Shown: positions 5,335 through 64,000 of the stretch, in pieces
Position numbering within the stretch: the stretch's first letter is position 1
Layout of the letters: every line of letters starts with the position of its first letter
Assembly: GCF_964204645.1 (NCBI RefSeq)
Contig: NC_134033.1
Location: 9,432,655 to 9,496,654 of the forward strand
Direction of reading: 5' to 3'
DNA from: Tubulanus polymorphus
Lineage: Eukaryota > Animalia > Nemertea
Length of the DNA: 64,000 nt
The notes under the pieces: model-generated
Databases searched by the model: none
Told to the model about the DNA's origin: nothing
Seen by the model: the letters and a program-made list of their open reading frames with translations, nothing else
Program-made: the position numbers and the translations under genes

Positions 5335-5556
5335 TTATATGGGAGGAATATATTTTTGTTTTTCTAAATAATCAATAGTTAAATTAGATAAAGTAACTGC
5401 TAATGTTAACTTTAAAATATCATTTATATCAAATCTATCAACATTAACACTTCCCATTTTGAATACTTTTTTTAATACCATTGAATAACCAACAGTTCCA
5501 ACTGATAGTAATGCTCCATTATATAATCCAGTTATTATCCACTTATTATCACTCAT
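5335..5556 (-). CDS. 73-aa hydrophobic protein
   Basis: Near-identical to 35137..35358; TAAATG start. Confidence 0.75.
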   Translation of the reverse strand: MSDNKWIITGLYNGALLSVGTVGYSMVLKKVFKMGSVNVDRFDINDILKLTLAVTLSNLTIDYLEKQKYIPPI

Positions 5557-5915: not shown

Positions 5916-6295
5916 TTACTCTCTACATCTTATAACTAATTCATAAATTACAGGGAAATTATTTAAATCAATTAAGTATCCATTATGATTTCTAATTTCT
6001 AATCTAAAATTATTAAAACGAGGAATGCATGGTTTGAAATCACATTCTGTTAAATTATAATTTATTTGCGTTCCAAATTCTTTAACATTCTTCAATGGTA
6101 AAATGTTTAGTAAACCAGAATTACAAGTTATATCTTTAGTTGCTTCGAATGTTTTTGTAGGATCGATTAAATTGCAATAGATATAAAAATGTGTAAAAGG
6201 CATTATATTTGAAATACCTTCTACGTTTCCTGTACCAATATCTGGTGCAATTCCTAGCAATTTAGCTATAGGTTTTTTTACCATAAATGCATGTT
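5916..6295 (-). pseudogene. Minor capsid (penton) 3' half, fused in frame to truncated pPolB
   Basis: ORF 5916..6956 switches from pPolB ...FYGKTCEN to penton KHAFMVKKPIAKLL...NNFPVIYELVIR. Confidence 0.85.
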
Positions 6296-10768: not shown

Positions 10769-11666
10769 GTGACACGTGAAATGACTCCCTGTGACTATCC
10801 TGATGCCGGGGTTCCAAGACCCGTAGATGCACCCGCCGGTGATGAGTTTACTCGACCAGTTGATGTGAACAGGTCACGTTCCTTCCATACTGATGCCTCT
10901 GGTCAGATGTCCCGTAACGTAACCTGTAAAGTAAAACCAGATTGTTACAATGGAGATGAACCGTGGAACGATTACTTTTTGACGTTTGAGACTTTTTTCT
11001 CATCTACGCTGCGCGGCGAGACAATTGGCGTGTAATTTGACAAGAGATGAAATAGCTGATTATATTCAATTGTGTACAGCCCTGGAGAATAGATTTGGAC
11101 CTAGCCATAGAGCCGAAATTCACTTAGCGGAATTACGGTCGCGTCGACGTAAGTGCGGTGAATCGTTAAAAGAATTAGGTCAAACTATCTTGATGATGGG
11201 AAGATTGGCTTACCCAGACCTAACCCCTAAGCAGAGGGAACGTCTTCGCAGAAATCATTTCATTGAAATTCTACCGGAAGTCGAGACTCGCGTTATGAAG
11301 TACCAAAAAGATACAAGTTCATTCGATGCCCTGGTAAATAATGCCCTCGAGCTAGAGAGTATACATACGATGGAAAGCAACCGCCATCTTGAAAACATGA
11401 TGTCACAGATAAACGCAGTCACCTCTAGGGGTTCCGAAGATTCCAAGGCCATTCAACAGCTGCCCAACGCAGTTTCTCGGTTAGCCGCAGACGTTCGAAC
11501 GATGAAGATGCAAGACCCGAACTTAACTGAAGGCTGTAGATGTTACAATTGTGACCAATTAGGCCATATCCGGATCAACTGTCCACACCTCAGACATCGA
11601 GGACAGGCTCCTCACAAACCGTGGGAGCAAACTAAGCCAAATTCGTCAAAGACCATGGGAAAATAG
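10769..11666 (+). pseudogene. gag: Retrotransposon Gag with CCHC zinc knuckle (frameshift/deletion near 11000)
   Basis: KPDCYNGDEPWNDY, ALENRFGP, LRSRRRKCGESLKEL and CYNCDQLGHIRINC (CX2CX4HX4C). Confidence 0.85.
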
Positions 11667-11744: not shown

Positions 11745-12149
11745 AGTAATAGGGATAATAGGCTTTCAAGCCAAAGGTCGAACGGTCGAGCTCATTAAAA
11801 AACAAAACATTAAAAGTAATTTAAAACTATAATATATTTTCATAACCGTGTGTATTTTATATTATAACTAAATATTTATTCTAAGATATCAATAATTTAA
11901 AAAGCATATTGTATTAAATCAATTGGTCGCTCCACTTCGCTACCGCTCTGCTCCGCGACCAATTGATTTATTTACAATACACAAATTCATATAATCAAAT
12001 ATATTTTAATAATAATAATTATTCTATTATTCAACTGAAATACACACGGTTATGAAAATATATTATAGTTTTAAATTACTTTTAATATTTGTTATTTAAT
12101 GAACTCGACCATTCAACCTTTAACCTGAAAGCCTATTATCCCTATTACT
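11745..12149. repeat. Left terminal fold-back of copy B (405 bp)
   Basis: Arms AGTAATAGGGATAATAGGCTTTC / GAAAGCCTATTATCCCTATTACT; central stem TAAATCAATTGGTCGC...GCGACCAATTGATTTA. Confidence 0.93.
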
Positions 12150-12360
12150 CCTAAAATATTCATGTAAATGAATAACATTTAAAAGTGTAAGCTCTTATAG
12201 AATAGATATATAGATATATTTACAACATTATTTCAATATTTATATTTGTGTGAGTTAGATTTTTAAACATTAAAAGTGTTAGTAAAGTGTGATTGAAATA
12301 ATGCATGATATAAATCATTGAACTTCTAAAATCAATTTAGTAAAAAAATACATATAATAA

Positions 12361-23301: not shown

Positions 23302-23673
23302 AGTAATAGGGATAATAGGCTTTCAGGCCAAAGGTCGAACGGTCGAGCTCGTAAAAAATGAAAATAATAATAATTTACAGTTGAATTAGTCGCGCACACT
23401 CCTAATTCAACTGTAAATTATTATTATTTTCATTTTTACTCACCCGCCCGTTCAACCTTTGACCTGAAAGCCTATTATCCCTATTACTCTTAAAATATTC
23501 ACATATATGAATAATATTTAAATCATTGAACTTCTAAAATCAATTTTAATAAAAAATATAGTATTAAAATGGAAGCAAATAAATACTACTGCCCAACATG
23601 TAATATCGATATAGACAAATCCCAAAAAGCAAGACACAATAAAACTATAACACATTTAGAGAATAAATTGAAA
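23302..23673. repeat. Left TIR of copy C (187-bp terminal fold-back at 23302-23488, promoter and first 35 pPolB codons)
   Basis: Reverse complement of 40805-41176. Confidence 0.95.
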
Positions 23674-23829
23674 CTAGAGTATTCAGAACAGTTAACAAAA
23701 GGAAAGAAATTTATTGAATTATGGAATAATGATCCAAATAATGAACAATACGTTGAGGATACGATGTTTATACTAGAACATGATTCTATTTTAGCCTATA
23801 TACATTCAATGTACAGAGCTATAGAATAA
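23569..23829 (+). CDS. Chimeric stub ORF (pPolB N-terminal zinc finger + HNH C-terminal relic)
   Basis: Same architecture as 1725..1976. Confidence 0.55.
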   Translation: MEANKYYCPTCNIDIDKSQKARHNKTITHLENKLKLEYSEQLTKGKKFIELWNNDPNNEQYVEDTMFILEHDSILAYIHSMYRAIE

Positions 23830-24544: not shown

Positions 24545-24870
24545 AATCTGATTGATGAATTTTTATGTTCGGTCGTTTCTATTCAGAATGAATATATGAT
24601 TATGATTAGCGCATGCGCATTGATCAAAAGCGCGCACGAATGCGCGCTTTTGCTCAGGTATGATTTGTGAATTTTTATGTTTAGTCGTTTCTATTATGAT
24701 TAACGCATACGCATTAAGCAAAACCGGCCATAAATGGCCGAATGTAACACATGTAACACATGTAACGCATGTGTTGTTTCTATTTTACAGAATTTACAGA
24801 ATGAATATATAATTATGATTAGCGCATGCGCATTAAGCAAAAGCGCGCATGAATGCGCGGTTTTGCCCAG
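24545..24870. repeat. Imperfect triple repeat with GCGCATGCGC palindromes followed by GC-rich mini-hairpins
   Basis: GCGCATGCGC at 24609 and 24822, variant at ~24703; CAAAAGCGCGCA-CGAA-TGCGCGCTTTTG at ~24626. Confidence 0.65.
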
Positions 24871-26876: not shown

Positions 26877-27965
26877 ATGATGAAAAAAGAACAATATTTG
26901 AGAGATTTATATTACAACCCAGAAAGTGAAGTATCATATTCAAGTGTTTCGGAATTATGGGATAAAATTAAATCTGATAAAGAAAAAATAAAATATAGTG
27001 AATTAAAATCATGGTTACAAAATCAACCCACATATCAAATTCATAAAAAGATGGATAAAAAATATTTAACAAGAAAAGTTATGGTTTCATATATCGATCA
27101 ACAATGGCAAGCAGATTTAATTGATATGAAAAACTTAGAAGAATATAACAAAGGATATTTTTGGATACTAAATGTTATAGATATATTCAGTAGATACGCA
27201 TGGTCAATTCCAATCAAAAATAAAACTGGTATAGAAGTTACAAATGCTTTTAAATCTATATTTAAAGAAGCTATTCCAGATAAGATACAATTTGATGAAG
27301 GTAAGGAATTTTATAACAAACATTTCAAAAAACTATTATCTGATAACGATGTAGAATATTTTTCAACACATTCAGATAAAAAAGCATCCGTTATAGAAAG
27401 ATTTAATAAAACATTGAAAACTAGAATGTGGAAATATTTCACCGCTAATGAAACATATAAATATATCGATGTGTTAGATGATTTAGTTAAAGGTTATAAT
27501 AATTCTAAACATAGTTCTATAAATATGAAACCTATACAAGCTAGAAAAGAAGATAATTCGGAAATAGTTTGGAATAATTTATATGGTGCGTTTGTTACAC
27601 ATGATTTTGGAGAACCTAAATTTAAAATTGGACAACACGTTAGAATTTCTAAATATAGAAAAACATTTTATAAAGGTTATACACCTAATTTTACTGAAGA
27701 AATATTTAAAATTAAAAAGATAATATTAACTAAACCTTTTGTTTATAAATTGTTTGATTTAAAAGATGAAGAAATATTAGGTTATTTCTATGAACAAGAA
27801 TTATCATTAGTACCAAATCCAGATGAAATAGAATACAAAATAGAAAAAGTATTGAAAACAAAAACTCTTAAAGGAAAAAAGTATTCTTTGGTGAAATATA
27901 AAGGATATGATGATAAATTTAATGAATGGATTTTATCTAGTAAAATTAAAAGAATAAATGAATAA
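26877..27965 (+). CDS. Retroviral-like (rve, DDE) integrase with C-terminal chromo-like domain
   Basis: WQADL, QFDEGKEF and VIERFNKTLK; YKIEKVL...SLVKYKGYDDKFNEWI; consistent with the 6-bp TSD. Confidence 0.95.
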   Translation: MMKKEQYLRDLYYNPESEVSYSSVSELWDKIKSDKEKIKYSELKSWLQNQPTYQIHKKMDKKYLTRKVMVSYIDQQWQADLIDMKNLEEYNKGYFWILNVIDIFSRYAWSIPIKNKTGIEVTNAFKSIFKEAIPDKIQFDEGKEFYNKHFKKLLSDNDVEYFSTHSDKKASVIERFNKTLKTRMWKYFTANETYKYIDVLDDLVKGYNNSKHSSINMKPIQARKEDNSEIVWNNLYGAFVTHDFGEPKFKIGQHVRISKYRKTFYKGYTPNFTEEIFKIKKIILTKPFVYKLFDLKDEEILGYFYEQELSLVPNPDEIEYKIEKVLKTKTLKGKKYSLVKYKGYDDKFNEWILSSKIKRINE

Positions 27966-28569
27966 AGATTTATTTATATTTGAACCACATAATATGTTAG
28001 TTACTGGAGTTACAAATTGTGGTAAAACACACTTCATATTAGATTTGTTAGAAACTATTTATAAGAATCATTTTGATAATATAATATTATTCTGTCCTAC
28101 ATATGAAATGAATGAAACGTATAATAGAGATATAGTTAAGATAAAAAAGTTTATTATATTAGATCCTAAAACAGTGAAAGATAATTTAGATAATTGTATA
28201 AAAATTGCAATAGATATTTATAAAGGATCTAATACATTATTTATTATTGATGATTGCGCAAATTTACATGATTCTAAAATTAGAGAAAGTGAGTTATGTT
28301 ATTTAGCTTTCTCTGGTAGACATTTTGGGATAACAACTTGGGTTTTAAATCAGAAATATAATTCAATTGTGAAAGATTTTAGAGAGAATATAAGATTTCT
28401 AGTTTTATTTTATAACAAAGATAGAAAATCTATGCAACAATCATTAGAAGAAAATCAAATTATACCTCCTGAATTACATGATGAATATATGAATAAATTA
28501 AAGAATAATAAAGGTTCAAAATTATTAATGAGATTACAATTTCCATATGAATATAAATTTATAAAATAA
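27958..28569 (+). CDS. A32/FtsK-HerA-like genome packaging ATPase
   Basis: Walker A GVTNCGKT, Walker B FIIDD, GRH arginine-finger motif. Confidence 0.93.
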   Translation: MNKDLFIFEPHNMLVTGVTNCGKTHFILDLLETIYKNHFDNIILFCPTYEMNETYNRDIVKIKKFIILDPKTVKDNLDNCIKIAIDIYKGSNTLFIIDDCANLHDSKIRESELCYLAFSGRHFGITTWVLNQKYNSIVKDFRENIRFLVLFYNKDRKSMQQSLEENQIIPPELHDEYMNKLKNNKGSKLLMRLQFPYEYKFIK

Positions 28570-35136: not shown

Positions 35137-35358
35137 TTATATGGGAGGAATATATTTTTGTTTTTCCAAATAATCAATTGTTAAATTAGATAAAGTAATT
35201 GCTAACGTTAACTTTAAAATATCATTGATATCAAATCTATCAACATTAACACTTCCCATTTTGAATACTTTTTTTAATACCATTGAATAACCAACAGTTC
35301 CAACTGATAGTAATGCGCCATTATATAATCCAGTTATTATCCACTTATTATCACTCAT
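35137..35358 (-). CDS. 73-aa hydrophobic protein
   Basis: Conserved across copies; TAAATG start. Confidence 0.75.
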   Translation of the reverse strand: MSDNKWIITGLYNGALLSVGTVGYSMVLKKVFKMGSVNVDRFDINDILKLTLAITLSNLTIDYLEKQKYIPPI

Positions 35359-36504: not shown

Positions 36505-36846
36505 TTATTCGAAATCTATTTCATGGTGCCCTTTTTCATTCTTACCTTTGTATACGAAATAGAAATCTCCAGAACATAATTCTTCTAAATCTTCACTTGA
36601 TAATCTATGAAATCTATCTGGTAAATAAGTTCTGAATTTATATTTATTTCCTTTTAATCCTTCATATTCTAAATGAATTACTAATTTATCTCCATATTTG
36701 TTAGTAACTGTAACAATATTTGTAATTAAATATTTCTTGTGAATTGTTAATTCTGTTAACTTTTTGAATTTATAATCTACAGATTTGACGCTTGAAGTAT
36801 CTTTAATTCTATCTAAGAATTCACTGTGTACTTGTTTACTCTCCAT
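36505..36846 (-). CDS. 113-aa protein next to polB, possibly a small OB-fold ssDNA-binding protein
   Basis: FKKLTEL..KKYLIT...NKYGDKLVIHL...TYLPDRF...FVYKG beta-rich pattern; function is a guess. Confidence 0.6.
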   Translation of the reverse strand: MESKQVHSEFLDRIKDTSSVKSVDYKFKKLTELTIHKKYLITNIVTVTNKYGDKLVIHLEYEGLKGNKYKFRTYLPDRFHRLSSEDLEELCSGDFYFVYKGKNEKGHHEIDFE

Positions 36847-44586: not shown

Positions 44587-44940
44587 TTATGCGAAATCTA
44601 TTTCATGGTGCCCCTTTTCATTCTTACCTTTGTATACGAAATAGAAATCACCAGAACATAATTCTTCTAAATCTTCACTTGATAATCTATGAAATCTATC
44701 CGGTAAATATGTTCTGAATTTATATGTATTTCCTTTTAATCCTTCATATTCTAAGTGTATAACTAATTTATCTCCATAGTTATTAGTAACTGTATCAATA
44801 TTTGTAATTAGATATTTCTTATGGATTATTAATTCTGTTAACTTTTTGAATTTATAATCTACAGATTTTACATTTGTAGTATCTTTTATTCTATCTAGAA
44901 ATAATTTGTTGTTCTCACTGTGTGTTTGTTTACTCTCCAT
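44587..44940 (-). CDS. 117-aa polB-adjacent protein (copy D)
   Basis: Homologue of 36505..36846. Confidence 0.7.
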   Translation of the reverse strand: MESKQTHSENNKLFLDRIKDTTNVKSVDYKFKKLTELIIHKKYLITNIDTVTNNYGDKLVIHLEYEGLKGNTYKFRTYLPDRFHRLSSEDLEELCSGDFYFVYKGKNEKGHHEIDFA

Positions 44941-48801: not shown

Positions 48802-49006
48802 TTTAATATCAATTTTTTTTTTAAATTGACTTTAGAAGTTCAATGATTTATATCATGTATCATTTCAATCACACTTTACTAACACTTTTAATGTTTAAAA
48901 ATCTAACTCACACAAATATGAATATTGAAATAATGTTGTAAATATATACTTTTATATTGAATAATCTGTCAATTAAAATGTTATTCATTTACATGATTAT
49001 TTTAAG

Positions 49007-49410
49007 AGTAATAGGGGTAATGGGCTTTCGGGTTAAAGGTTGAATGGTCGAGTTCATTAATAACAAATATTAAAAGTAATTTAAAACTATAATATATTTG
49101 CATAACCGTGTGTATTTCAGTTTAATAATAGAATAATTATTATTATTAAAATATATTTGATTATATGAATTTGTGTATTGTAAATAAATCAATTGGTCGC
49201 GGAGCGGAGCGGTAGCGAAGTGGAGCGACCAATTGATTTAATACAATATGCTTTTTAAATAATTGATATCTTAGAATAAATATTTAGTTATAATATAAAA
49301 TACACACGGTTTTGAAAATATATTATAGTTTTAAATTACTTTTAATGTTTTGTTTTTTAATGAGCTCGACCGTTCGACCTTTGATCTGAAAGCCCATTAC
49401 CCCTATAACT
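49007..49410. repeat. Right terminal fold-back of copy D (404 bp, same subtype as copy B)
   Basis: AGTAATAGGGGTAATGGGCTTTC...GAAAGCCCATTACCCCTATAACT. Confidence 0.92.
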
Positions 49411-49822
49411 CTTATCAACTTTGAATAACTGGAGTATATCAGTCTACCAGTCGAGGATAACTTTAGCATTTTTACAAAAAAATAGTTTTTCATTGTTTTA
49501 TTAAATGAATGGCATTTCCTATAGCTTAATTTGGGTTCATGTGTTAGAAATAAAGATAATTTTGATCATACATGTATTATAGAATTCCTGTTTTAATGTT
49601 TTATTATTTGTTCACACTGACCAAAATTCAGTCCTTTTTGATACATTTTTTCTTGTTTAAGTTTTCAATGAAATGAATTTTTGCATGCCGGTAGCCTACA
49701 CGTGACAGATTTTTTACTTCCTTTATTTATTCATGTCAGTAATTAGAAGATGGCGTTTTCAGATCAGAGGACGAGAGGACGAGACACCACTCATCACCAC
49801 AAGTAATTTTTTTTCCTAATAA

Positions 49823-52800
49823 ATGGGGGAGAATGAACACCAACTAGAAAACAATAATATCAATAAAAATCAATATTATTGTCAATATTGTAAAAAATAC
49901 ATCGATACATCTAATAAAACACGACATGAAAAAACTGCAAATCATATAAAAAATGTTATAGATTTTGAAACTCCAGAAAATTCCAATGAAAGAAAAGAAC
50001 GATTAGAAAATATGAATGTGGATGAAATAAAATGTGAAGTTTGTAATGAATTTATAGTAAAAAGGAATTATAGTAGACATCTCGAATCACAAAAACATTA
50101 TAAAAATTTAAATAAAAATGTTTTTGGATTAGAATATTTTGATAATAAACCTCAAAAAGTAAAAGAATCAACTTCAAAAACTAAATCCATTTCAAATAAA
50201 CCTTACATGGAAAATGTTAGAAATTATATTGATTCACTAGAAATAAAAGATACAATTGAAATCTTAGAAACATTACATAGTAAAATTGGTCCTGCAGCTA
50301 TTATATTTAGATTCTTTAAAGGTACAACAATAGAAGATTATAGTAAATTTAATGAAATAATAGAAAAAATACTAGATTTGATAACAGATGTTGAATATCC
50401 AAAAATTAGTATCTCTGGGAAAGTAAGTTTTATGAAGTCAGAAGAAAAAATGAATTATAATATTCAAACACTCTCTGAAGAAATAATTTCAAAAACACAA
50501 ATAAAAGAGAAGTTAGAAAAAATATTAAATGAATTTAAACGTCATATTGAAGAAAGATATTTTGAGGGTTCTGGTTTAACATTGAATGAAATTATATATT
50601 TAGATTTAAATGTTTATAATACAAAAAGAAATAAAACATCAAAAAGTAATAAAATGTTTAAAAATAATTCAAACTTTATAATAGAAAAAGATATGAAAGC
50701 ATCAAGTTATATTAAATTACCATTTTTATCAAAAGCAGTAATAAATATTCAAAATGAAGATAATAAATGTTTTCTATGGTCAATTATTAGTTGCTTACAT
50801 CCATCACAGGAAAATGCTTGTAGAATAACAGATTATCGGAAATATGAAACATTATATAAAATTGATCAATATCCAGTAACTATAAAAATGATACCCAAAA
50901 TAGAAAAAATTAATAATTTAAAAATAAATGTATTCGAATTAATGCAATTACCAAAGACAAAAGGTGAAAATATTAAAGATTATACATTGGAAGCTTTATA
51001 TTTAACAGAATATTATGATGATGAAAATGCTATAGATTTGTTATATTACAAAAAAGATGAAAATGAACATTATATGTGGTTAAAACAAATTGATTTATTC
51101 TTTAGAACAGAAAGTGATTTTAACAACCATAAAAATTTATCTATGTAGAAAATGTTTATCTAAATTTAGAACTGAGAATGCGTTACTAAAACATAAAGAA
51201 TTATGTGATAATAAAGATTTTTGTAAATTAATAATGCCAACAGAAAAAGATTATAAATTGAAATTTACTAATCATAAATTTAAAAATATTGTTCCATTTG
51301 TAATTTATGGGGATTTTGAATCGTTGAATAAAGAATTAACTGATCAAGATAGAAAAGAAATATATAACAAAAAGCAATTATTAAAATCAATGGATAAAGG
51401 AAATGAATTAAATGAAGACGCAACACAAGACCCACCAATTATAAATACAATTAAAAAAGTTCATCAAAGAGCTGCTGCTAATGGAATTTACATCAAATCA
51501 AATTATCCCGAATTATATGAAAGTCAATATATTTCTTTTAGAGGTGAAAATGTAGTTAATGATTTTTGTGATAAAATGATTGAATTAGAAAGTGATTTTA
51601 CAAAATTATTAAACAAAAATAAAAGAATAGTTATGACAAAAGAAGATGAAATTGATTTTAATTATGCAACTCATTGTTGTTATTGTGAAAAACGTTTTTA
51701 TTCATTTGATAAAAAAGTTAGAGATCATGATCATTTAAATTCAAAATATCGTGGAGCTGCTCATGAAGATTGCAATTTACAAGCTAAGAAAGTTAATTTC
51801 GTACCAATATTATTTCACAATTTATCGGGTTATGATACCCATCTATTTATAAAACAATTATCAAAGAAATTGGGTACAATTAATCAAGAAATAGAAGAAT
51901 ATAATGCTATGAATGGTGTAAATGTAAGAAAATATGATTTTAAACTATTAGCTAAAACATCTGAAAATTATATTTCATTACAATTTGGTTGCATTAGATT
52001 TTTAGATTCTTATAGATTTCTAGCAAGTTCATTAGATAATTTATCAAAAAGTTTAGTTGATAATGATTTTGTTATAACTCGATATTATTATCCAAATGAC
52101 CAAGATTTTAAATTATTGAGATATAAAGGCGCAATTCCTTATTCATTTTATAAAACACACAATGATTTTAATGTAACAGAATTATTAAAAGATCAATTTT
52201 ATGATCAATTAAAAGAGGAGTATGTGAAAGATGAAGTGTTTAATAGAACATTAAATATTTGGAACCATTTTAAGATGAAAAATCATGGTGAATTAGTTGA
52301 TTTATATTTAAAATCAGATGTTATGATATTGGCTGACATATTTGAAAAATTTAGAGAAGTTAATTTAAATCATTTTAATGTTGATCCTTGTTATTGTTAT
52401 TCAAGTCCTGGTTTAACCTGGCAATGTGGTTTAAAATATACAAATGTAGAATTAGATTTATTAAAAGAACCAGATATGGTTTTATTATTTGAAAAATCAA
52501 TTAGAGGTGGAATTAGTGGTGTTATGGGAGATAGATATTTTAAAGCAAATGATGAATATAAATTATTATATATTGACGCCAATAATTTATATGGTTGGGC
52601 AATGATGCAACCTCAACCATAATAAAATTTTATATTAACAGAAGTTGAAAATGATGATAAAACTGATTGGGAAAGCGCAATTGCGAGTTTAAAAGATGAA
52701 GCACCAATTGGTTATTTCTTTGTAGTTGATTTAGAATATCCTGAAAAAATAAAGTTTATAACAAGAAACTTACCTTATTGCCAAGAACATTTAACTGTAG

Positions 52801-54890
52801 ATGATAGTTATTTAAGTGAATACCAGAAGAAAATAAAACCGAAAGATCATGTTTTTACAGAAAAATTAATACTTACTCAAAATAATAAATACAATTATAT
52901 TGTTCATTATAGAATGTTAAAATTTTATCTAAAACAAGGAATGAAATTAAAGAAAGTACATAGATATATTGAATTTAATCAATCGAAGTGGTTAGAAAAA
53001 TATATAGATTTCAATACTCAACAGAGAACCATATCAAAAACAGATTTTGAAAAAGATTTCTTTAAATTAATGAATAATAGTTTTTATGGTAAAACATGTG
53101 AAAATATTAGAAATAGAAATGATATTGAATTAGTAAATAATTCTGAAAGATTAAGACATTTACAATCAAGTCCTAGACATTTAGGAAATAAAAGGTTTGA
53201 AGATTATTTAACCGCGGTAAAATTAAAAAGAACGTCCATGAAATTTAATAAACCAATATTTATAGGTTCAACCGTTTTAGAAATTTCAAAGCTATTGATG
53301 TATGAATTCTATTATAATGTTTTACAACCACTTTTTGGGGAAAAACATATAGAAATATTATATTTTGATTCTGTAACGGCTGACACCCCAATATTATTAA
53401 AATGTAATAATAAAATATTGGTAAGAAGAATTTCAGAAATAATTCCAAAACAAAATGAATGTTATATTTCATATGGAGAAAAAGAATTAATACAAATAAA
53501 TGGTTTAATGGATGTTTGGACAAGAAATGGATGGAAAAAATTAAAGAATATTATTAGACATAAAACAAATAAGAAAATCTATAGAGTTAGAACTAAATTA
53601 GGATTTGTTGATATTACTGAAGACCATAGTTTGATTAAACAAAATGGTAATGAAATAAAACCAACTGATATAAAAATTGGAGATGAATTATTACATAAAA
53701 GATTTTTCCCAAGAATGAATCATATGTCATTTGATGAAATAATTAATAATATTTATAATATAGAACCCGAAACATTGGAAGAAAAAGAATATTTTATCAA
53801 AGGATTTTTCATGGGTGATGGTTCAGCAGGTGTGTATAAATATGTTTGGGGTAATAAATATTGTTGGTATTTATGCAATCAAGACTTAAAATTATTAGAA
53901 AGAATTAAGAAATTCTGTGAAGAAGTTTATTCACATAAAACATTTAGAATCATGGACCATATGAAATCATCCGCGGTTTATAGAATATTTGTAAATAATC
54001 CTAAAGATTTTGCTACAAAATATAATGATGAATTCTATATTCATGCAATAGTGAAAAGTAATACTTCAACAAAAGAAAAGATAGTTCCAGATTATGTATT
54101 GAATGCAAAAAATAATTTAAGAAAGTGGTTCTTCATTGGATTCTATGCCGCAGATGGTTCAAAAAGGTTCCAAAACCGCAAAACAATATCCTTTGCTCAA
54201 AAAGGAAAAGTTGCTATATCAGGATTGAATATATTATGCAGTTCATTAGGATTTAATATGAATATAGAATTAATTAAATCTAAACCAAATTGTTTTAATT
54301 TAAGGCATGTAGCAAAAGAATTAACAGAAGAAGTTAAAGATTTATTTGAAATATATAACCCAACTGACTATGTTTATGATTTATCAACAGATGATGGAAC
54401 ATTCAATTCTGGGTTCCCATTAATCCAAAAAAATACTGACAGTTACATACTAAAAATCAAGACAAATGATATAACAAAAGACTTAAAAACATTAAAACAT
54501 TATTTTGATTTTAGCAATTACCCCAAAGATCATGAATTGTTTAGCAATGATAATAAAAAGATTCCTGGTAAATTTAAAGATGAATTAGGAGGTGATGAAA
54601 TGATTGAATTTGTTGGGATAAGAAGTAAAATGTATAGTTACAGAACAAAAGATCATGAAGCTAAAAAGTTAAAAGGAATAACAAAACATGTGGTTGATAA
54701 ACATATAGAATTTCAAGATTATATAAAGTGTTTATATAAATCAATTGTAATGAAACACAAAATGAATTGTTTAAGATCAGAAGATCATGAGATGTACATT
54801 AATGAAGTTGAAAAAACTAGTTTAAATCCATTTGATGATAAAAGGCATATTTTAGATGATGGTATAAAAACATTACCTTATGGCCATTAA
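49823..54890 (+). pseudogene. polB: Divergent pPolB containing an intein; frameshift near 51130 and stop at 52620
   Basis: All exonuclease and polymerase motifs present across ORFs 49823..51148, 51090..52622 and 52914..54890. Confidence 0.93.
53370..54434 (+). mobile_element. Intein (355 aa) with LAGLIDADG homing endonuclease, inserted in pol motif C (YFD|TDS)
   Basis: Block A SVTADTPILL; block B DITEDHSL; LAGLIDADG FIKGFFMGDG and FFIGFYAADG; block F VYDLST; ends QKN with +1 Thr; absent from copies C and D. Confidence 0.95.
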
Positions 54891-56203
54891 AACATAAAAT
54901 CAATATCATCATACTCGAAATCACTATTAGCTTCTTCATTTTCATTTAATTGTTCAGGTTCTTCTTCCATTCCATTTTTCTCATTTAAATAAATTTCTAT
55001 CTTGTTCCACATTTCATCTCGCTCTCTTTGTTTCTTTTTATTTGTTAATTCATCAAATGGAATTATAATATCTAGGTTTAAATAATTTACAATCTTATTT
55101 AAAAAGAATTCATAATTTATTGAATCTGTTATTCTATTTTCCAAATGATACATTAATATTTGTTTAAATATTTTTTTTATATTTTCCATATCTTCTTCTG
55201 TTAATTTAGGTTTTTCATAATAATCGTTAAATAATAAATATAAATACATTTTCTTTTGTTTTGTGTTAAATGTTGGTGGAATAATTGTTTTTATAATATC
55301 TTTTTTAGTTATTTCACCATTTTCATTTTCTATTATTTTCATTTTTTCAAGCCATTGCATATATTCTGGTGTATGATCTTCTATAGAAAATATTTTAACA
55401 ATTTCATCTAGATAATTTAATTTTGGTTCTATGAGAAAATCTCTAGTTTTTTCTTCACCCCATAAATTTTTTTGCCATCCACAATCAACACAAAATAACA
55501 CAGTACCTTCTTGCCTTAAGGTCGCATAAATACATTGTGGGCATTTTTGTTTATAATTTACTGGTAATAGATCTTCATTAAGCTCTTGGTATTTTCTTAC
55601 GTTTTCTTTATGTTTTATTGTTCTATTATGTAGATTTGAATTACTTGTTGTAATAATCAATTTACAATATTTACAATAATATGTTTTTCTTGTTAATTCA
55701 TTATATTGTTTTTCTAACTTTTCAACTGTTTCTTCATTATCTGGTAACGTTTTCTCATATTTTATTTTTTCTAATAAATTATTTTTTCTTTCATTAAATT
55801 CAGTTTCAAATTTATTAGAAATTTTATCTATATGTACTTTACGAAATTGATGATTCTCCCAATCTTCTATATTTTCAGGCTTATATTTTATTCGACAAGG
55901 CTCACAGAAATAATCTTTTATATTATCCTTATCATAGAATAAGAAAGGTCTTTTCCAAATAATTTCAGGTTCAACTTCAACAGAATTATTATTACTTTCG
56001 TTACTGTCAACATTAACTATTAAGTTATTATTTTTACACTTCTCTAAATGTTTTTAGAAATAATTTCTAGAGAATGTTTTATTACAATTTGGACAGTTTA
56101 TTTTAGGGGGTTTATAATTTTCATCATGTTTTTTCATATGTCGAGCCATATTACTTTTTCTTAGAAGTTCACCACAAATTTCACATGCTATCTTCTCATT
56201 CAT
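54887..56203 (-). CDS. Four C2H2-type zinc fingers fused to a poxvirus A2L/VLTF-3-like late transcription factor domain (~438 codons, one in-frame TAA at 56054-56056)
   Basis: ATG at 56203 (TAATAAATG) is in frame with ORF 54887..55660; CPQC-x13-CVDC zinc ribbon; SINYEFFLNKI...DEMWNKI. Confidence 0.75.
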
Positions 56204-56271
56204 TTATTAAGGAAAAATTTTATTAAAAATAATTTTTAGTGATGAGCGGTAATTTTTTTATGTTATAAATA

Positions 56272-57036
56272 ATGGTAGAATTAAAAGAATACAGAATATT
56301 TGTTGATTCTAGAAAACTTACAAATTATAAATCACATAATTTATTAGTACAATTAGATAGAGAATTCAAGAATTGTGTTGATTTAAAATTAGTAAATATA
56401 AGTTTATGTAACTCATTTTATAATATAACAGCTAAAAGTCTTGAACATTTATTTTTTTCAATCAAGAGTAAGGATAAATAGAATTATCTATTTTTAAAAC
56501 CAGTATTATATAATTTAAATACATTAGCGCAGGAAATTAATAAAAAAGCTCGGATGAAATTAGGTAGTGATGCTGAATTTAACATTAGATTTTTGAAAAG
56601 TGATAATTCTAATAAAATGAAGATAAGGTTAGCTCATAATGAAAAATATCAATTTTCAGTTAAAAAACCTATAGCTAAACTATTAGGAATTACACCAGAT
56701 AAATATTATTCAAATGTTGATACTACACCAAATATAATACCTTTTACACATTTTTATATTTATTGCAATTTAATCGATCCTACAAAAACATTCGAAGCAA
56801 CTAAAGATATAACTTGTAATTCTGGTTTACTAAACATTTTACCATTGAAGAATGTTAAAGAATTTGGAACACAAATAAATTATAATTTAGCTGAATGTGA
56901 TTTCAAACCTTGTATTCCTCAATTTAATAATTTTAAATTAGAAATAAGAAATCATAATGGATACTTAATTGATTTGAATAACTTTCCTGTAATTTATGAA
57001 TTAGTTATAAGAGTAATTTTTTCACTATATAAATGA
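56272..57036 (+). pseudogene. Minor capsid (penton) with an in-frame stop at 56479 (copy E)
   Basis: ORFs 56272..56481 and 56554..57036 share a frame. Confidence 0.82.
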
Positions 57037-57389
57037 ATATAACTGTTGGACCGAGTATATGTTTTGGATTTGATTTTAAACGTGAGAAAGAAATGAAATT
57101 TAACATTAATGATGTAATAACACATATCAAAAATACTGCATTTTCTAATGAAACAACATTTGAGTATGAAACAACAATAGATAAAGAAACTTTAAATGTA
57201 GAAAAGATTACTAATTTAATTAGAGAATCTTTAAGATTTTATGAATTAGATGAAGATTTTATAATCGATGATATTAAAAAAATAATAATTGAAATATATA
57301 CAAATGAAACTAGTAATAAAATAAATGTTGAATTAATCATAAATAAGTTAACTAAATATTTTGATGATAGTAATTTTTTTGATAAATAA
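57033..57389 (+). CDS. 118-aa hypothetical protein (copy E)
   Basis: Near-identical to 35359..35715. Confidence 0.75.
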   Translation: MNITVGPSICFGFDFKREKEMKFNINDVITHIKNTAFSNETTFEYETTIDKETLNVEKITNLIRESLRFYELDEDFIIDDIKKIIIEIYTNETSNKINVELIINKLTKYFDDSNFFDK

Positions 57390-57610
57390 ATGAGTGATAA
57401 TAAGTGGATAATAACTGGATTATATAATGGCGCATTACTATCAGTTGGAACTGTTGGTTATTCAATGGTATTAAAAAAGTATTCAAAATGGGAAGTGTTA
57501 ATGTTGATAGATTTGATATCAATGATATTCTAAAATTAACATTAGCAGTTACTTTATCTAATTTAACTATTGATTATTTAGAAAAACAAAAATATATTCC
57601 TCCCATATAA
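57390..57610 (+). pseudogene. 73-aa hydrophobic protein with a 1-nt frameshift in an A-run (copy E)
   Basis: ATGAGTGATAATAAGTGG start; aligns with 35137..35358. Confidence 0.75.
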
Positions 57611-57634
57611 ATGCATAATTTTTTTGCTAAATAA

Positions 57635-58057
57635 ATGGCTTCTGCAATTATAACTATTATAGGATCGGCAATTGTTAACGCTTTAGCATTTACTGGTGGT
57701 GGTTATTTATTTAAACATATTGATAAAAATAGTTCATTAGGAGAACAAAGAAGACATAACTTAGCGTTAGAGAAATACAATAAAGCTGCAGAAGAATATA
57801 GAGAAAAGAGGCAAAACTATATGGATTACATCAATAAAGAATTATATGATCAGAAGATTTCACATAGAGATTTTCAATCAGTTGATGATGCAATGAGTTT
57901 ATATAACGCGGTAACCAATAAAGAAAAATTACATCTATACAAACCTAACTTATCAGATTATTATACCCCAAGTAAAGAACAACAGAAATATGAAATAATA
58001 TGGATTTTAGGTGGAACTGTTATTGTTATATTTGTTGCTTATAAGTTTACTAATTAG
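57635..58057 (+). CDS. 140-aa membrane-associated protein (copy E)
   Basis: Near-identical to copy C. Confidence 0.8.
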   Translation: MASAIITIIGSAIVNALAFTGGGYLFKHIDKNSSLGEQRRHNLALEKYNKAAEEYREKRQNYMDYINKELYDQKISHRDFQSVDDAMSLYNAVTNKEKLHLYKPNLSDYYTPSKEQQKYEIIWILGGTVIVIFVAYKFTN

Positions 58058-58075
58058 TAATTTTTTGTTAAATAA

Positions 58076-58510
58076 ATGGAAGATAAAGTTGATAGTATTG
58101 ATATTATTCCTCATGATATAAATAAAACTAAATTAAAAACATATTTAGAAAAACAAATATTAGAATTTGAAAGTGACTTAAAGATAAAAAAGAAAAAATA
58201 TTTAAAAAGTAAAATTATATATTATTTGATTATAAGTGGTTCGGTTACAATTAGTTCTGTAATAACATTTCTAGCAATATTCAGCCCATTAACACCTTTA
58301 GCTATATCAATTGGTGTATTAGGATTATCATCAAGTGTTTTAACTGGTATAAGTTCAAAATTAAATATAAAAAGTAATAAAGAAAAAATAAAATCTAATA
58401 TAAAAGAAATTAATAAATTAAAGAACACACTAGATTATATAATAAGTTTAAATGGTCATATAACAGTTGAAGAACAAGATAAATTATTAAAAGAATTAAT
58501 AAATTATTAA
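58076..58510 (+). CDS. 144-aa two-TM protein (copy E)
   Basis: Near-identical to copy C. Confidence 0.8.
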   Translation: MEDKVDSIDIIPHDINKTKLKTYLEKQILEFESDLKIKKKKYLKSKIIYYLIISGSVTISSVITFLAIFSPLTPLAISIGVLGLSSSVLTGISSKLNIKSNKEKIKSNIKEINKLKNTLDYIISLNGHITVEEQDKLLKELINY

Positions 58511-58526
58511 TTTTTTAATTATATAA

Positions 58527-59915
58527 ATGGTAGATAGTTTTCCAAAAGCTTTCCAATATAATAAATCAATTAAATATAATATTCCAACAATAGATTTTAA
58601 TAAAGATATTACATATAGAAATGAAGTTTTAGATTCATTAATTGATTTACATATTTATGTTACTGAAACTAATAATTTTAATGCAAAGATGGAAAATATA
58701 TTTCATGTATATTTAATTAATTTTAAAAAATTGAAAGATGAAAAACAATGGTTATTAAAATCTAATATGAAGTATTGGCAGAACCAATTAAATTTTGCTG
58801 TTTATTGTGCAACAACAGGATGTGGAATTAGTTGGAATGATCATTTGAATAATTCTAAATATAAATTAATTCAAAGTTTATTTAGATTTCATACATACTT
58901 TCAAATAAGAATAATATTAAATGAATTAGAGTGCGCTTTACCAGGATCTAGGTATTTCAAAGAATTAGATAATAATATTAATTTATCAAAGTTTTATAAG
59001 ATTTGCAATGAATTTAATATAGATATAAATAATTCTGATTTTAGAACAAAAATTGGAACAATAAGATCACTTCCTTGCCCTAGAAAGATTGCAGAATATT
59101 GTGCACTTCCCATACCATCTAATAGTTTTTATAATATCTATAATAATAAATTAGGTTATGGTAAAATAGAAACTAAGGATTTAGAAACATTAAATTTCAA
59201 TAAATTGCCGAAATTTTATGATCATTTAAAACAAGAAAACAATAATGGTTGGGTATACTTTATTTTAGAAAATAGTGAAGGTTTTACTAAATCAGGTATA
59301 GAAAGAATAAATCAATCTATTAGAACTTATTTGATATGTATTTTAGGTGCGCAAGTTGAAACAAGATCACCGATAATTGGAAATTTGAATACATCATTCG
59401 ATACACAAAAACAATTTAAAGTTTTATTTGAAGATTCCATACATAATGATAAAAATAGATCTATTCCAGAAAACATTATAAGATATCAAAATTATTTAGA
59501 TAAATCTCATGTAAGACTTAATTATTGTATAGGCCCTAATCTATTAATTATTTCTAATGATTTAGTATTAAAGATGGGAAATATAATTGGTTATAATAAT
59601 CTAATTAAAACTGCAACAATAAATAATTCATTTGGGTTAAATGATATAAATAAAAAGATTATCACTGCTCCAAAATTAATGGAAGGTGAAAAAAATAAAA
59701 AACACATTCAATCAACAGAAACTAAAACTAAGAATATAAAATTGGATAATGATTCTAAAATAAAAGATTACAATACATCAGAAAATATAAAAACTGATAA
59801 AATTCAACATGATATAATTAAAACTGATAATGATAATAAATCACATGAAAATACTAAATTAGCTATAACTTGTATAGGAATTGTAATCGGAGGAATATTA
59901 TATTTTAAATTTTAA
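58527..59915 (+). CDS. 462-aa TM-anchored putative virion protein (copy E, A-type allele)
   Basis: Near-identical to 3025..4413. Confidence 0.82.
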   Translation: MVDSFPKAFQYNKSIKYNIPTIDFNKDITYRNEVLDSLIDLHIYVTETNNFNAKMENIFHVYLINFKKLKDEKQWLLKSNMKYWQNQLNFAVYCATTGCGISWNDHLNNSKYKLIQSLFRFHTYFQIRIILNELECALPGSRYFKELDNNINLSKFYKICNEFNIDINNSDFRTKIGTIRSLPCPRKIAEYCALPIPSNSFYNIYNNKLGYGKIETKDLETLNFNKLPKFYDHLKQENNNGWVYFILENSEGFTKSGIERINQSIRTYLICILGAQVETRSPIIGNLNTSFDTQKQFKVLFEDSIHNDKNRSIPENIIRYQNYLDKSHVRLNYCIGPNLLIISNDLVLKMGNIIGYNNLIKTATINNSFGLNDINKKIITAPKLMEGEKNKKHIQSTETKTKNIKLDNDSKIKDYNTSENIKTDKIQHDIIKTDNDNKSHENTKLAITCIGIVIGGILYFKF

Positions 59916-59931
59916 TTTTTTTATTATGTAA

Positions 59932-61377
59932 ATGGATGTAGAAGGTGGAGAAGATATTCCATTGGATGACATGGGAAATAATAATGAAGGATATATTGAT
60001 GATGAACCACAAACCGATTTTAATAAAACTAATATTGATAATGATGATGAATCAGCATATAATTCTAATTTAACTACACCCCAATTTATTGACAAAGCAC
60101 GTTCAAAGATAAGTATTGAAAATGAAGTACCAGAAATAACAGAAAAAGAATACAATTATAATGAAATTATTCATGAATTTAAACCAATATTAAAAAAATC
60201 TGGTTTCAATATAACAGATAAAGATATGGATAAATTAGCAAAAGATTTGAAATATTTAAATGGTGATTATTATTGGAAATTGAAAGGCGACTATTATTTT
60301 AAGATTTCAAATCTTAAAAGTAGCAGTAATGATAAAATAATAACACAATCAACTTCTAATTTATTAGAACAATCTAGAATTAAGAAAATCAATAATGATG
60401 TTATAACTGATGTTACAAAAAAAGAAAGAATTGTTAATTTAAAAGAATTTAAACAAAGAAATGCTAATTTTTTTAAGATAATTAATGCAAATTTAAGACA
60501 AAAAAAAATTCCTAAAGAAGTTATTAATTCCAAAACTAGTAAACCTAATTCAAGAGAAGTTCAAACTGAAAAACTTTTACCAAATGGATTACTTGATGCA
60601 ACAAATCAACAATTAGAAGATTTAGATATATTTTCTGATAAAGCAATAAGAGAAATTGTTAGTATAAGACTTGCATCTGAAAAAATTGCATATAATAAAA
60701 GTATAAGAGATATTAAAATTAGAACTTTAGAAAAAGAATTAACTGATAAAAATAAAGAAATAGAACAATTAAAGTCTGATTTAGATCATCAAGTAATTGA
60801 TGAAATAGAATATAAACAAAAAGAATTACGTTTAGAAAAAGAAATAGATGATTTAAAATATAACAAAGAATTACAAAAAGAAGAAAGAGATACATTGTTA
60901 AAATCATATGATTATAATATTAATAGATTAAAAGTTATTTTTAAAGATTTGTTGATTAAACCAAATTCTGAAATATCATTAAAAGACAGGATGAAGTTAT
61001 TATTTAAATTAGAAGGAATAACAATTCTTTCAATTCTAACAGCTGTAACTATGTTATTTACAACAATTGGTTTAGCAATATCAAATGCTTTGAAATCTAC
61101 TCCCACTCCCAATAAACCAGATAAACCTCCAGGTAATAATTCTATACAAGATAAAGTTAAGGATGGTTTAAAGAAATTAGCAAAATATTTATGGGAACTA
61201 TCAAAGAAATCTGCTGCAGCTTTACCAGGAGTTATTGCATCAATTGTTGGTTTTATATTGAAATCTGCAGGAAACATTATTAACTTTGCTGCTGAACATA
61301 TTATTTTATTTTTAATTACAGTTGTAAGTGCTATTATTTTTGGTTTAGTAAATATGATATCAAAAAATATCAAGTAA
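59932..61377 (+). CDS. 481-aa coiled-coil/TM protein (copy E)
   Basis: Homologue of 31435..32901. Confidence 0.82.
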   Translation: MDVEGGEDIPLDDMGNNNEGYIDDEPQTDFNKTNIDNDDESAYNSNLTTPQFIDKARSKISIENEVPEITEKEYNYNEIIHEFKPILKKSGFNITDKDMDKLAKDLKYLNGDYYWKLKGDYYFKISNLKSSSNDKIITQSTSNLLEQSRIKKINNDVITDVTKKERIVNLKEFKQRNANFFKIINANLRQKKIPKEVINSKTSKPNSREVQTEKLLPNGLLDATNQQLEDLDIFSDKAIREIVSIRLASEKIAYNKSIRDIKIRTLEKELTDKNKEIEQLKSDLDHQVIDEIEYKQKELRLEKEIDDLKYNKELQKEERDTLLKSYDYNINRLKVIFKDLLIKPNSEISLKDRMKLLFKLEGITILSILTAVTMLFTTIGLAISNALKSTPTPNKPDKPPGNNSIQDKVKDGLKKLAKYLWELSKKSAAALPGVIASIVGFILKSAGNIINFAAEHIILFLITVVSAIIFGLVNMISKNIK

Positions 61378-61421
61378 ACCATGATATCAAAAAATAAATA
61401 ATTAATTTTTTTGTTAAATAA

Positions 61422-62669
61422 ATGAGTGGGAGTTATATAAGTCCGTCGAAGAATCATAGAATATCTAATGCTATTAAAGCAGAAAGATCACATCATATAA
61501 TTACTCATAATCCTTCAAATATTAATCCCGATGAAACTTTATATGTTAGAATTCCTAGATTAACACAAAATACTTTTTATGTTCCAAATAGTATTTATTT
61601 ATCAGCCGATATAAAAGTAACTGGTCATGATAATAATTATGTTGTCGATAATGTTGGAAGATATTTGATTAAAAAGTTAACAATAAAGATTGGTTCAGAA
61701 ACAGTTTTCTCATTAGATGATTATAATTTATTTATGTATTATAAAGATTTATGGTTAACTAAAGAAAATAGAAATAATATGATATTTCAAGGTATTCAAT
61801 CGGAAAACCATAATAAATTAAGATCTGAAGCCAATAACGCAGTAGTAAATAATAGCGTAGATAATTTGATTAAAAAGATTTATGGAAGTAAATATAAAAT
61901 TCCATTAGACTTTGAATTGATAAATAATAATGCACCTTTATATAAATACGCAATTTAAGAAGATATTATATTTGAGATAACATTTGCTCCTGTAAATGAA
62001 ATTGTATTATCTAGCGTTGTTAAAGATATGGGTTATAAATTATCGAATATATGTTTAGAATATAACACAGTAACTAATGAAAATATTGCTAGCACAATTC
62101 AAACTCAATACAATCAAGGATTTTCATTATTATATGATTATATTGATAAATTTAAAACTGTAACTATTAATGCAAATGATGAAATAATTAATGAGAATAT
62201 TAACTTTCCTAGAAGATCTATTAAAGGTATATTAATATTTTTTACCATTGCAACATATTCTAATGGCGCAATAAATGTTGATAATTATTATAATCCTGAA
62301 ATAACAAAAGTAGAAATAACTATCGAAATAATAGCAAATAAAATATTTTGCCAAGGAATGAGAATGATAGACCAATGGCCAGAAATTAGAAAACATTTTA
62401 TGAATGAAAAAGTAAAATCATCTGAAAATTGTAATATTAATCAAATTGATTATTATACCGGTAATAAATATGCATTATGGTTAGATTTTAGAACAACAGA
62501 GGATAATTCATTACATGGTTCTGGGAAAAAACTACAGAACACTAAAGATGGAATACAATTATTCATGAAAAAGAAAAAAGGAAGCTTAAATTTCAAAATG
62601 CACATTTATATTATATCTGACGCACAATTAAATATTGTAAATTCACAATTAGATAGTATTCAATATTAG
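61422..62669 (+). pseudogene. Major capsid protein with an in-frame stop at 61956 (copy E)
   Basis: CAA-to-TAA change at YAI*EDI; otherwise collinear with 30142..31389. Confidence 0.85.
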
Positions 62670-62699: not shown

Positions 62700-63827
62700 A
62701 TGAGTGGTAAAAAAACTCCTAATACTAAAGAACAATATTTAAGAAATTTATATTACAACCCTGAGAGTTCGGTTGCTTATTCTTCTACTAAAAATATATG
62801 GCGTAAAGTAAAACAAGATAAATTAGATAAGATAATCCCACAAAATTTAGTTAAATATAAAGATATAAATGAATTTATGTTAGAACAACCAACGTATACA
62901 ACACATAAAAAAATTGTTAGAAAATATAAAACTCGTAAAACTATGGTAAGTTATGTAGATCAACAGTGGCAAGGAGATTTAATTGATATGAAAAATCTTA
63001 AAAAAGATAATGATGATTATTGGTGGATATTGAATATAATTGATATTTTTAGTCGTTATGTATGGAGCTTCCCACTTTATAGAAAAGATGCTGCACAAAC
63101 ATCACATGTTTTAAGAAAATTTCTTTCAGGTGGTAAACTAAAACCAGAAAAAATTCAATTTGATAATGGAAAAGAATTTGATAATTCATTAGTTCATGGA
63201 CTTTTAGATTTTCATAATATTAAATATTTTTCAACAAAATCGGATAAAAAAGCAGCAGTTGTTGAACGATTTAATAGAACATTAAGAACAAGAATGTGGA
63301 AATATTTTACAGCAAATAATACTTTTAAATGGATTGATGTTTTACCAAAATTGATAGAAGGATATAATAATTCTTATCATTCTTCTATTGGAATGAAACA
63401 TATTGATGCTAGAAAACCTGAAAATGCTGAAATTGTTTGGAATAATTTATATGGAGCATTTCTTGTAGATGATTTTGGTGAACCTAAATTTAAAGTTGGT
63501 CAAAATGTTAGAATTTCTAAGTATAAAAAGATATTTGACAAAGGATACGATCGAAATTTTACTAGGGAAATATATAAAATAAAAAAGGTAATAACAACAA
63601 AACCATATGTCTATAGATTAGAAGATTTAGATGGTGAAGAAGTTGATGGATATTTTTACGAAGAAGAATTAAGTTTAACTACTGAAAATCTAGAACAAGA
63701 ATATAAAATTGAAAAAGTACTAAAAACAAAAACTGTTAAAAGAAAAAAATATTCTTTAGTAAAATGGGTTGGATGGCCAGATAAATTCAATGAATAGATA
63801 TTATCAAGTAAAATTAAAAATATATAA
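62700..63827 (+). CDS. Divergent rve integrase with chromo-like domain; premature TAG ~10 codons before the natural end
   Basis: WQGDL, QFDNGKEF and VVERFNRTLR; SLVKWVGWPDKFNE*ILSSKIK. Confidence 0.9.
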
Positions 63828-64000
63828 ATGAATAAGGAATTATTTATATTTGAGCCTCATAATATGTTAATTTCTGGTGTAACAAATTGTGGAAAAACTT
63901 ATTTTATATTAAATTTATTAGAAACTGTTTACAAAAACTATTTTGATAATATAGTATTATTTTGTCCAACATATGAATTTAATCAAACTTATGATAGAAA
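63828..64000 (+). CDS. Packaging ATPase, partial (runs off the window)
   Basis: MNKELFIFEPHNMLISGVTNCGKT. Confidence 0.88.
   Translation, partial: MNKELFIFEPHNMLISGVTNCGKTYFILNLLETVYKNYFDNIVLFCPTYEFNQTYDR

Follow-up and report, generated by a model that had tools for sequence, protein, structure and literature searches.

The 64,000-nucleotide stretch of Tubulanus polymorphus DNA analysed here (the window) contains a cluster of nested Polinton copies, and we find that one of them, copy E, carries a gene that joins four zinc fingers to a homologue of the poxvirus late transcription factor VLTF3 (A2). The comparisons below support its assignment to VLTF3/A2 as well as the fusion with the fingers. 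The gene and its parts are as follows.

54887..56203, minus strand: zinc-finger/VLTF3 fusion gene of 438 codons, interrupted by a single in-frame stop; a pseudogene here
56036..56185, minus strand: fingers 1 (C2H2, residues 7–26) and 2 (C2HC, residues 37–56), in tandem, with ligands retained in the homologues P0004 and P0005
55832..55906, minus strand: finger 3 (residues 100–124; C100/C103/H118/H124), with long His spacing and a long helix pair after it
55610..55675, minus strand: finger 4 (residues 177–198; C177/C180/H192/H198), of U1/matrin type (Pfam zf-U1, E 1e-6)
55481..55543, minus strand: C4 zinc ribbon, C221-x2-C224-x13-C238-x2-C241, with A2-type spacing, aligned with the ribbon of P0007 and of locus L005
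54968..55462, minus strand: VLTF3 helical core (about residues 248–412), with a predicted cyclin/TFIIB-like fold (PF04947, Foldseek and structural search)

As the earlier note on this DNA had read it, the frame runs from an ATG at 56203 to the stop codon at 54887–54889 through a single internal TAA, codon 50 (56054–56056), which falls within finger 2. A 257-residue frame of the gene begins at TTG, and the first ATG past the internal stop, at 55360, gives 157 residues that exclude the ribbon; the gene is single-copy within the window. Four Cys/His fingers are indeed present (ligands C7/C10/H22/H26 in finger 1 and C37/C40/H52/C56 in finger 2), but their description as C2H2-type throughout does not stand, given the long His spacing of fingers 3 and 4 and the zf-U1 match of finger 4. 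Fingers 1–2 have a weak Foldseek likeness to DNA-binding C2H2 arrays (E 0.5–1.7), and the finger 4 type recurs in a 260-amino-acid (aa) gene and at the N-terminus of the element's protein-primed DNA polymerase (pPolB), where tblastn matches finger 4 at 49853–49957 (E 1.2e-4). The ribbon spacing and the SINYEFFLNKI...W signature, both picked out earlier, are found at residues 221–241, 361–371 and 399, and an acidic tail is present; as modelled, the protein looks like a ribbon plus one cyclin-like repeat.

The C-terminal 227 residues match Pfam Pox_VLTF3 (PF04947) with E 5.4e-6 and 26.7 bits (cut-off 25) over profile positions 83–165 of 168, and the 257-aa frame does so with E 7.5e-6. The match is absent when the full-length fusion protein is the query, P0004 and P0005 as whole proteins fall below the PF04947 cut-off, and the Pfam A2L_zn_ribbon profile (PF08792) gives no match to the fusion protein. 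An AlphaFold2 model of the C-terminal part (pLDDT 73, pTM 0.63) has cowpox VLTF3 as its best Foldseek match (E 5e-6, TM 0.58), with three of the four matches at E ≤ 0.001 named poxvirus VLTF3; for the full-length model, named VLTF3 makes up 8 of 12 matches at E ≤ 0.001. The ESM Atlas returns PF04947 clusters in 28 of 30 matches (score 0.95), with the recognition value under threshold, while PDB sequence searches yield chance rows only and Foldseek against the PDB yields nothing at E ≤ 0.001. The VLTF3/A2L identity that had been proposed for the C-terminal domain is thus reached both by profile, above the cut-off, and by structure. Like A2 of poxviruses and VLTF3 of nucleocytoplasmic large DNA viruses (PF04947, PF08792), the fusion has a C4 ribbon followed by a helical core with an I-[NS]-Y-E-[FY] motif and a terminal W, and its fold matches cowpox and entomopox proteins; unlike them, it is extended at the N-terminus by about 210 residues that hold the four fingers, and it is 28% identical to helper-type A2.

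A search of 1.84 billion protein representatives returns four matches at E ≤ 0.001. P0004 (697 aa, 46% identity) and P0005 (446 aa, 34%) have four fingers plus the ribbon in open frames and place an intact fusion at two independent loci, L001 and L002, respectively; ribbon and core motifs are whole in 3/3 fused homologues. P0006 has one C4 motif without the finger array, and P0007 is a canonical VLTF3 (PF04947 and A2L-ribbon matches; hhalign probability to it 95.8) that shares 63% identity with a gene whose locus bears MSV199, T5orf172, NAD-ligase and pox entry-complex domains and is therefore of entomopox type. Word-index protein searches, a nearly blind method, contribute 0 of 271 and 1 of 7995 candidates, and viral-contig scans with element proteins or alignments give nothing new beyond the entomopox-type record. 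In L001 the intact P0004 gene stands tail-to-tail with an intact pPolB, the same arrangement as in copy E; that pPolB is 79% and 83% identical to the copy E protein over two main segments and 64% at the N-terminus, versus 63% to copy C. The L001 element ends next to a RhoGAP exon that is preceded by a TTTTCAG acceptor, and is therefore integrated in a eukaryotic gene; at 6290–6508 of L001 this end lies about 60 bp before the exon and its canonical acceptor, that is, within an intron. Equal contig sizes suggest that P0009 and P0006 share contigs (16,883 and 12,994 bp) with the capsid homologues P0133 and P0035. Among 925 capsid homologues found, P0056 and P0137–P0144, as well as loci L003 and L004, are Polinton capsid homologues assigned to bacterial or archaeal assemblies, for which contamination by host DNA is the most likely cause.

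Sequencing reads from one DNA run under the same species label bear on the internal stop. Most of them, 161 of 173, differ from the window inside the codon at 56054–56056, and no indels are listed over 56030–56290; because of this majority, the stop looks private to the decayed copy E. Read depth is 177–315 over the fusion gene versus about 590–670 in flanks common to other copies, and the gene is therefore the mark of a subfamily with several copies. In copy E, pPolB is broken by a frameshift and a stop, and the penton-like and capsid genes have one stop each; the fusion is real, the copy E version is a pseudogene and the copy is dead. An alternative genetic code for TAA was rejected, as other genes terminate at TAA and most reads differ at the codon.

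The remainder of copy E, as far as it lies in the window, comprises the following genes.

49823..54890, plus strand: pPolB, protein-primed family B DNA polymerase with a LAGLIDADG intein; frameshift near 51084–51148, stop at 52623–52625; T-class start (defined below)
56249..57036, plus strand: putative penton-like gene, divergent from the fusion gene; T-class upstream box, stop at 56479–56481
57014..61424, plus strand: block of 118-, 73-type, 140-, 144-, 462- and 481-aa genes, each with a late-like start, TAAT-T5/6-N-TAAATG
61422..62669, plus strand: major capsid protein gene; internal stop at 61956–61958, T-class start
62700..63797, plus strand: rve integrase with chromodomain; TAAATG start
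63828..64000, plus strand: A32-type packaging ATPase gene, start only; TAAATG start, after which the element leaves the window

The ends of pPolB and the fusion gene overlap tail-to-tail by 4 nt. Polinton hallmarks are matched by PF03175 (PolB), PF00665 (rve), Pox_A32 and Capsid_N (E 0.00085), and an intact A32 ATPase paralogue lies at 27958–28569 in copy C (Pox_A32, E 1.6e-11); the penton-like gene has only a weak match, to DUF5901, and no maturation protease is matched among 35 window proteins.

The motif TAA(A)ATG stands at 37 of 41 listed gene starts. It is found at 38 of 61 unfiltered open reading frames (ORFs) of at least 90 aa, versus 229 of 2522 ATGs overall, and the unfiltered ORFs that lack it are mostly fragments and antisense frames. 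Upstream, at fixed spacing, we find two classes of box. The T class (TAAT, a T run, TAAATG) has 25 matches, all at starts of 8 gene types, where a dinucleotide shuffle expects 0.47, and a T occupies position –10 in 8/8 T-class versus 3/9 A-class gene types. The A class (AATAAAA-type) has 14 matches, 13 of them at gene starts (shuffle 1.56; 5 versus 0.85 for a stricter pattern). An over-long version of the promoter pattern has 1 match. The T class spans the capsid block and includes the copy E penton and the pPolB of both VLTF3-bearing elements seen. To the A class belong pPolB of copies A, C and D, the slot gene described below, the HNH-like and 260-aa genes, the copy C penton, and the fusion gene in copy E, L001 and L002, so that an A-box precedes the fusion gene in 3/3 loci. 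In copy E the predicted promoter is:

56201..56229, minus strand: TAATAAAA box, T run and TAAATG; near-identical in L001, with an A-box plus TAAATG in L002

No variant in this box or its TAAATG is listed in the reads, and the fusion gene shares its TAAATG start with the entomopox-type gene. Vaccinia late promoters have TAAAT(G) with a conserved T at –10 amid other Ts, and vaccinia intermediate promoters have TAAA with an A-preferring upstream tract (PMC11980589); A2L is itself an intermediate gene (PMC5294985). Set against this published consensus, the T class resembles vaccinia late promoters and the A class vaccinia intermediate ones; late motifs of African swine fever virus, mimivirus and Cafeteria roenbergensis virus are unlike the element's boxes.

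These letters could also be read as signals for translation or 3'-end formation in an AT-rich host, with the fusion as real cargo that has no targeting role (an extra A2, or something with a different function). AATAAA overlaps 5/8 T-class starts and forms the A-box, most copies lack the fusion gene, and codon-position differences between the window and L001 (0.36/0.31/0.36) have no third-position excess, a test limited by extreme codon bias. The motifs nevertheless precede genes without a co-oriented upstream neighbour (the fusion gene in copy E; pPolB in C, E and L001), which leads us to reject a poly(A)-signal reading that accounts for only some of the letters, and 3/8 T-class starts lack AATAAA yet keep TAAATG. 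A splice-acceptor reading of the T run is rejected because AG occurs between the T run and the ATG in 0/8 T-class starts. As the box classes moreover sort by gene function, we regard the cargo explanation as distinctly improbable.

A second explanation places transcription with the host: RNA polymerase II would transcribe the element in the nucleus, and the fusion would be a private TFIIB-like factor that brings the host enzyme to the element's late boxes, much as VLTF3 presumably acts in mriyaviruses, which have no RNA polymerase. The ribbon and cyclin-like fold favour it, as a wide structural search (VIA) is led by cyclins and by chains with a cyclin fold from Pol II/III initiation complexes (best Z 6.6, root-mean-square deviation 4.1, 93 residues aligned; none at Z ≥ 8), chain M of the top-matching initiation complexes being TFIIB. 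An integrase implies nuclear access, and the mriyaviruses and ariadnaviruses, inferred to be nuclear, keep VLTF3 without an encoded RNA polymerase (PMC11253617; 10.64898/2026.08.29.747986), so that it is unsafe to assume, as the earlier note did, that VLTF3 functions solely with a viral polymerase; these viruses keep VLTF2 too and, unlike the Polinton, belong to Nucleocytoviricota. Against this, the boxes stand 8–22 nt before the ATG, with TAAAT overlapping it, and as core promoters would leave almost no leader; copies without the fusion gene bear the same boxes, and the nearest fold matches are poxviral. AATAAA is also not avoided in coding strands (59 versus 55.8 expected in 13.1 kb), a weak point that has no host control. 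On this evidence we consider transcription by the host polymerase unlikely.

We lean instead towards a reading in which this Polinton subfamily is a hyperparasite of a putative pox-type helper and supplies a late factor itself, one that would be produced in the intermediate stage and anchored to element DNA through its fingers. During helper infection, the helper polymerase and intermediate factors would read the A-rich class, comprising replication genes and the fusion gene; the fusion protein would then replace or compete with helper A2 through its ribbon and cyclin-like domain, and its fingers, drawn from the element's own repertoire, would hold it on element DNA. Late transcription would thereby be biased to the T-rich class, that is, the capsid block plus, in the VLTF3 subfamily, pPolB and penton, whereas copies without the fusion gene would depend on the A2 of the helper. 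The origin of the fingers is most simply explained by shuffling inside the element, because pPolB and the 260-aa protein already use the finger 3–4 type. The helper-virus idea of the earlier note gains independent support, which that note did not use, from pox-type promoters before nearly every gene. Its statement that the element encodes no RNA polymerase holds for the part seen and not as a claim for the whole, because copy E leaves the window at 64000: no RNA polymerase is matched among the 35 window proteins, with small TAA(A)ATG-started ORFs inspected by eye only, and in that part, unlike in poxviruses, there is no RNA polymerase, VLTF1 or VLTF2.

The same promoters would serve a hyperparasite whose fusion protein is a poison or decoy that jams helper late transcription and protects the host. 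The fusion is strongly diverged from helper-type A2 (28%), and Sputnik delays mimivirus late expression (PMC11998528). However, the element's capsid block uses late-like boxes, and a general block would silence it; none of the three fused homologues has lost the ribbon or the core motifs, and we infer that a protein with its ribbon and cyclin-like domain intact is more probably put to use than a poison, a role we judge improbable. That the family borrows a pox-type helper's polymerase, whether to redirect or to poison it, is likely. The fullest version of the reading we favour, in which an integrated Maverick is a true virophage of a poxvirus-type virus, with a two-stage cascade, a captured A2 re-aimed by its fingers, and polymerase and penton moved under the late class that this A2 would govern, we hold as a tentative possibility.

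Several observations weigh against a pox-type helper. No helper virus was seen, though no search aimed at one was made. The promoter patterns were drawn post hoc from the same sequences, copies A–E are not independent, and the element is about 77% A+T, a composition that may favour entomopox matches. A distant AT-rich Polinton has TAAAATG at 3/4 virion-type genes with the boxes absent, as judged by eye, and the boxes are absent from both distant Polintons compared. In the entomopox-type locus only 4 of 10 ORFs, the VLTF3 ORF among them, have TAAATG, and the exact upstream boxes are missing. T5NT (TTTTTNT) is about threefold depleted in coding strands (4 versus 13.6 expected from synonymous shuffles; 10 genes, 13.1 kb), a depletion that pox post-replicative transcription would not demand. 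VLTF3 persists in viruses without an RNA polymerase, most copies lack the fusion gene, which is therefore dispensable, and the switch of promoter class is seen in two pPolB genes and one penton gene.

Comparison with the neighbouring copies places the fusion gene in a slot flanked by the 3' end of pPolB on one side and the penton-like gene on the other. The earlier note had assigned this slot to a 113-aa gene in copies C and D, which is right for copy C; in copy D the gene encodes 117 aa. Both are co-oriented with their neighbours, whereas the fusion gene fills the slot in the opposite orientation, head-to-head with the penton-like gene. Since the fusion replaces the slot gene, the VLTF3 subfamily may lack it. 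The nearest named Atlas cluster to the slot gene (36505–36846, 44587–44940) is a phi29-type single-stranded DNA-binding protein (0.85, a lead only), and the clusters are arthropod-dominated, which together with a gag-like ORF in the window hints, short of proof, at an animal host. The LAGLIDADG-containing intein occupies 53411–54432 in copy E pPolB and is absent from L001 pPolB; the corresponding position is filled by sequence in copies C and D. An unlisted 73-aa hydrophobic gene with a T-class start is conserved across copies (35140–35358, 5338–5556, 57390–57530). AGTAATAGGG-type ends stand inverted in neighbouring copies. Near-palindromes of about 405 bp at 49006–49411 and 11747–12150, each with a AGTAATAGGG-type end on either side and a central hairpin, are mini-elements or end-to-end junctions. 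Deleted or chimeric copies at 1725–2854 and 23569–23826 join the pPolB N-terminal finger to sequence from the opposite element end; a GC-rich gag-like ORF with a zinc knuckle lies between Polinton copies at 10983–11666 and is probably a retroelement fragment; and short GC-richer tandem repeats with GCGCATGCGC palindromes lie just inside one element end, at 24590–24870.

Mavirus shares a promoter motif with its helper. More broadly, the virophages Sputnik and mavirus and the transpovirons copy helper promoter motifs and borrow the helper's polymerase, as we propose here; their helper family and motifs differ, and VLTF3 in them is unreported in the available portions of the sources (PMC11998528, PMC11788076). 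Polinton-like viruses (PLVs) have been described in entomopoxvirus occlusion bodies and proposed as poxvirus hyperparasites (PMC11296320). Those PLVs lack an rve integrase or have a tyrosine recombinase, whereas copy E is an integrated pPolB-plus-rve Maverick; in the accessible text of that paper 'VLTF' and 'transcription' have zero occurrences. VLTF3 has already been reported in Polintons (PMC11131425; PMC8502044; 10.64898/2026.06.19.733378), and in VLTF3-bearing Polintons and PLVs it is an accessory gene, as here; the accessible parts of these three sources do not mention a finger fusion, pox affinity or promoter classes. Transfer of KilA from an egovirus to a Polinton is also on record (10.1101/2024.03.23.586382). 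A literature search outside subscription journals found no report of a finger–VLTF3 fusion or of pox-type Polinton promoters in the partial texts it covered, and supplements could hold such annotations.

VLTF3 in Polintons being already known, the novelty lies in the two pox-like promoter classes at gene starts, and the main interest is that a pox-type late factor occurs together with promoter classes of pox type. The fusion would also be a natural probe of A2 mechanism, as our searches of the PDB, by sequence and by fold, gave no A2 relative. Gene starts that match poxvirus intermediate and late promoters name a helper class, and so bear on the expression of integrated animal-type Polintons and on their possible need for a helper. 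If the reading is true, a captured, finger-extended A2 would be a case of a parasite hijacking its helper's transcription cascade with the helper's own factor.

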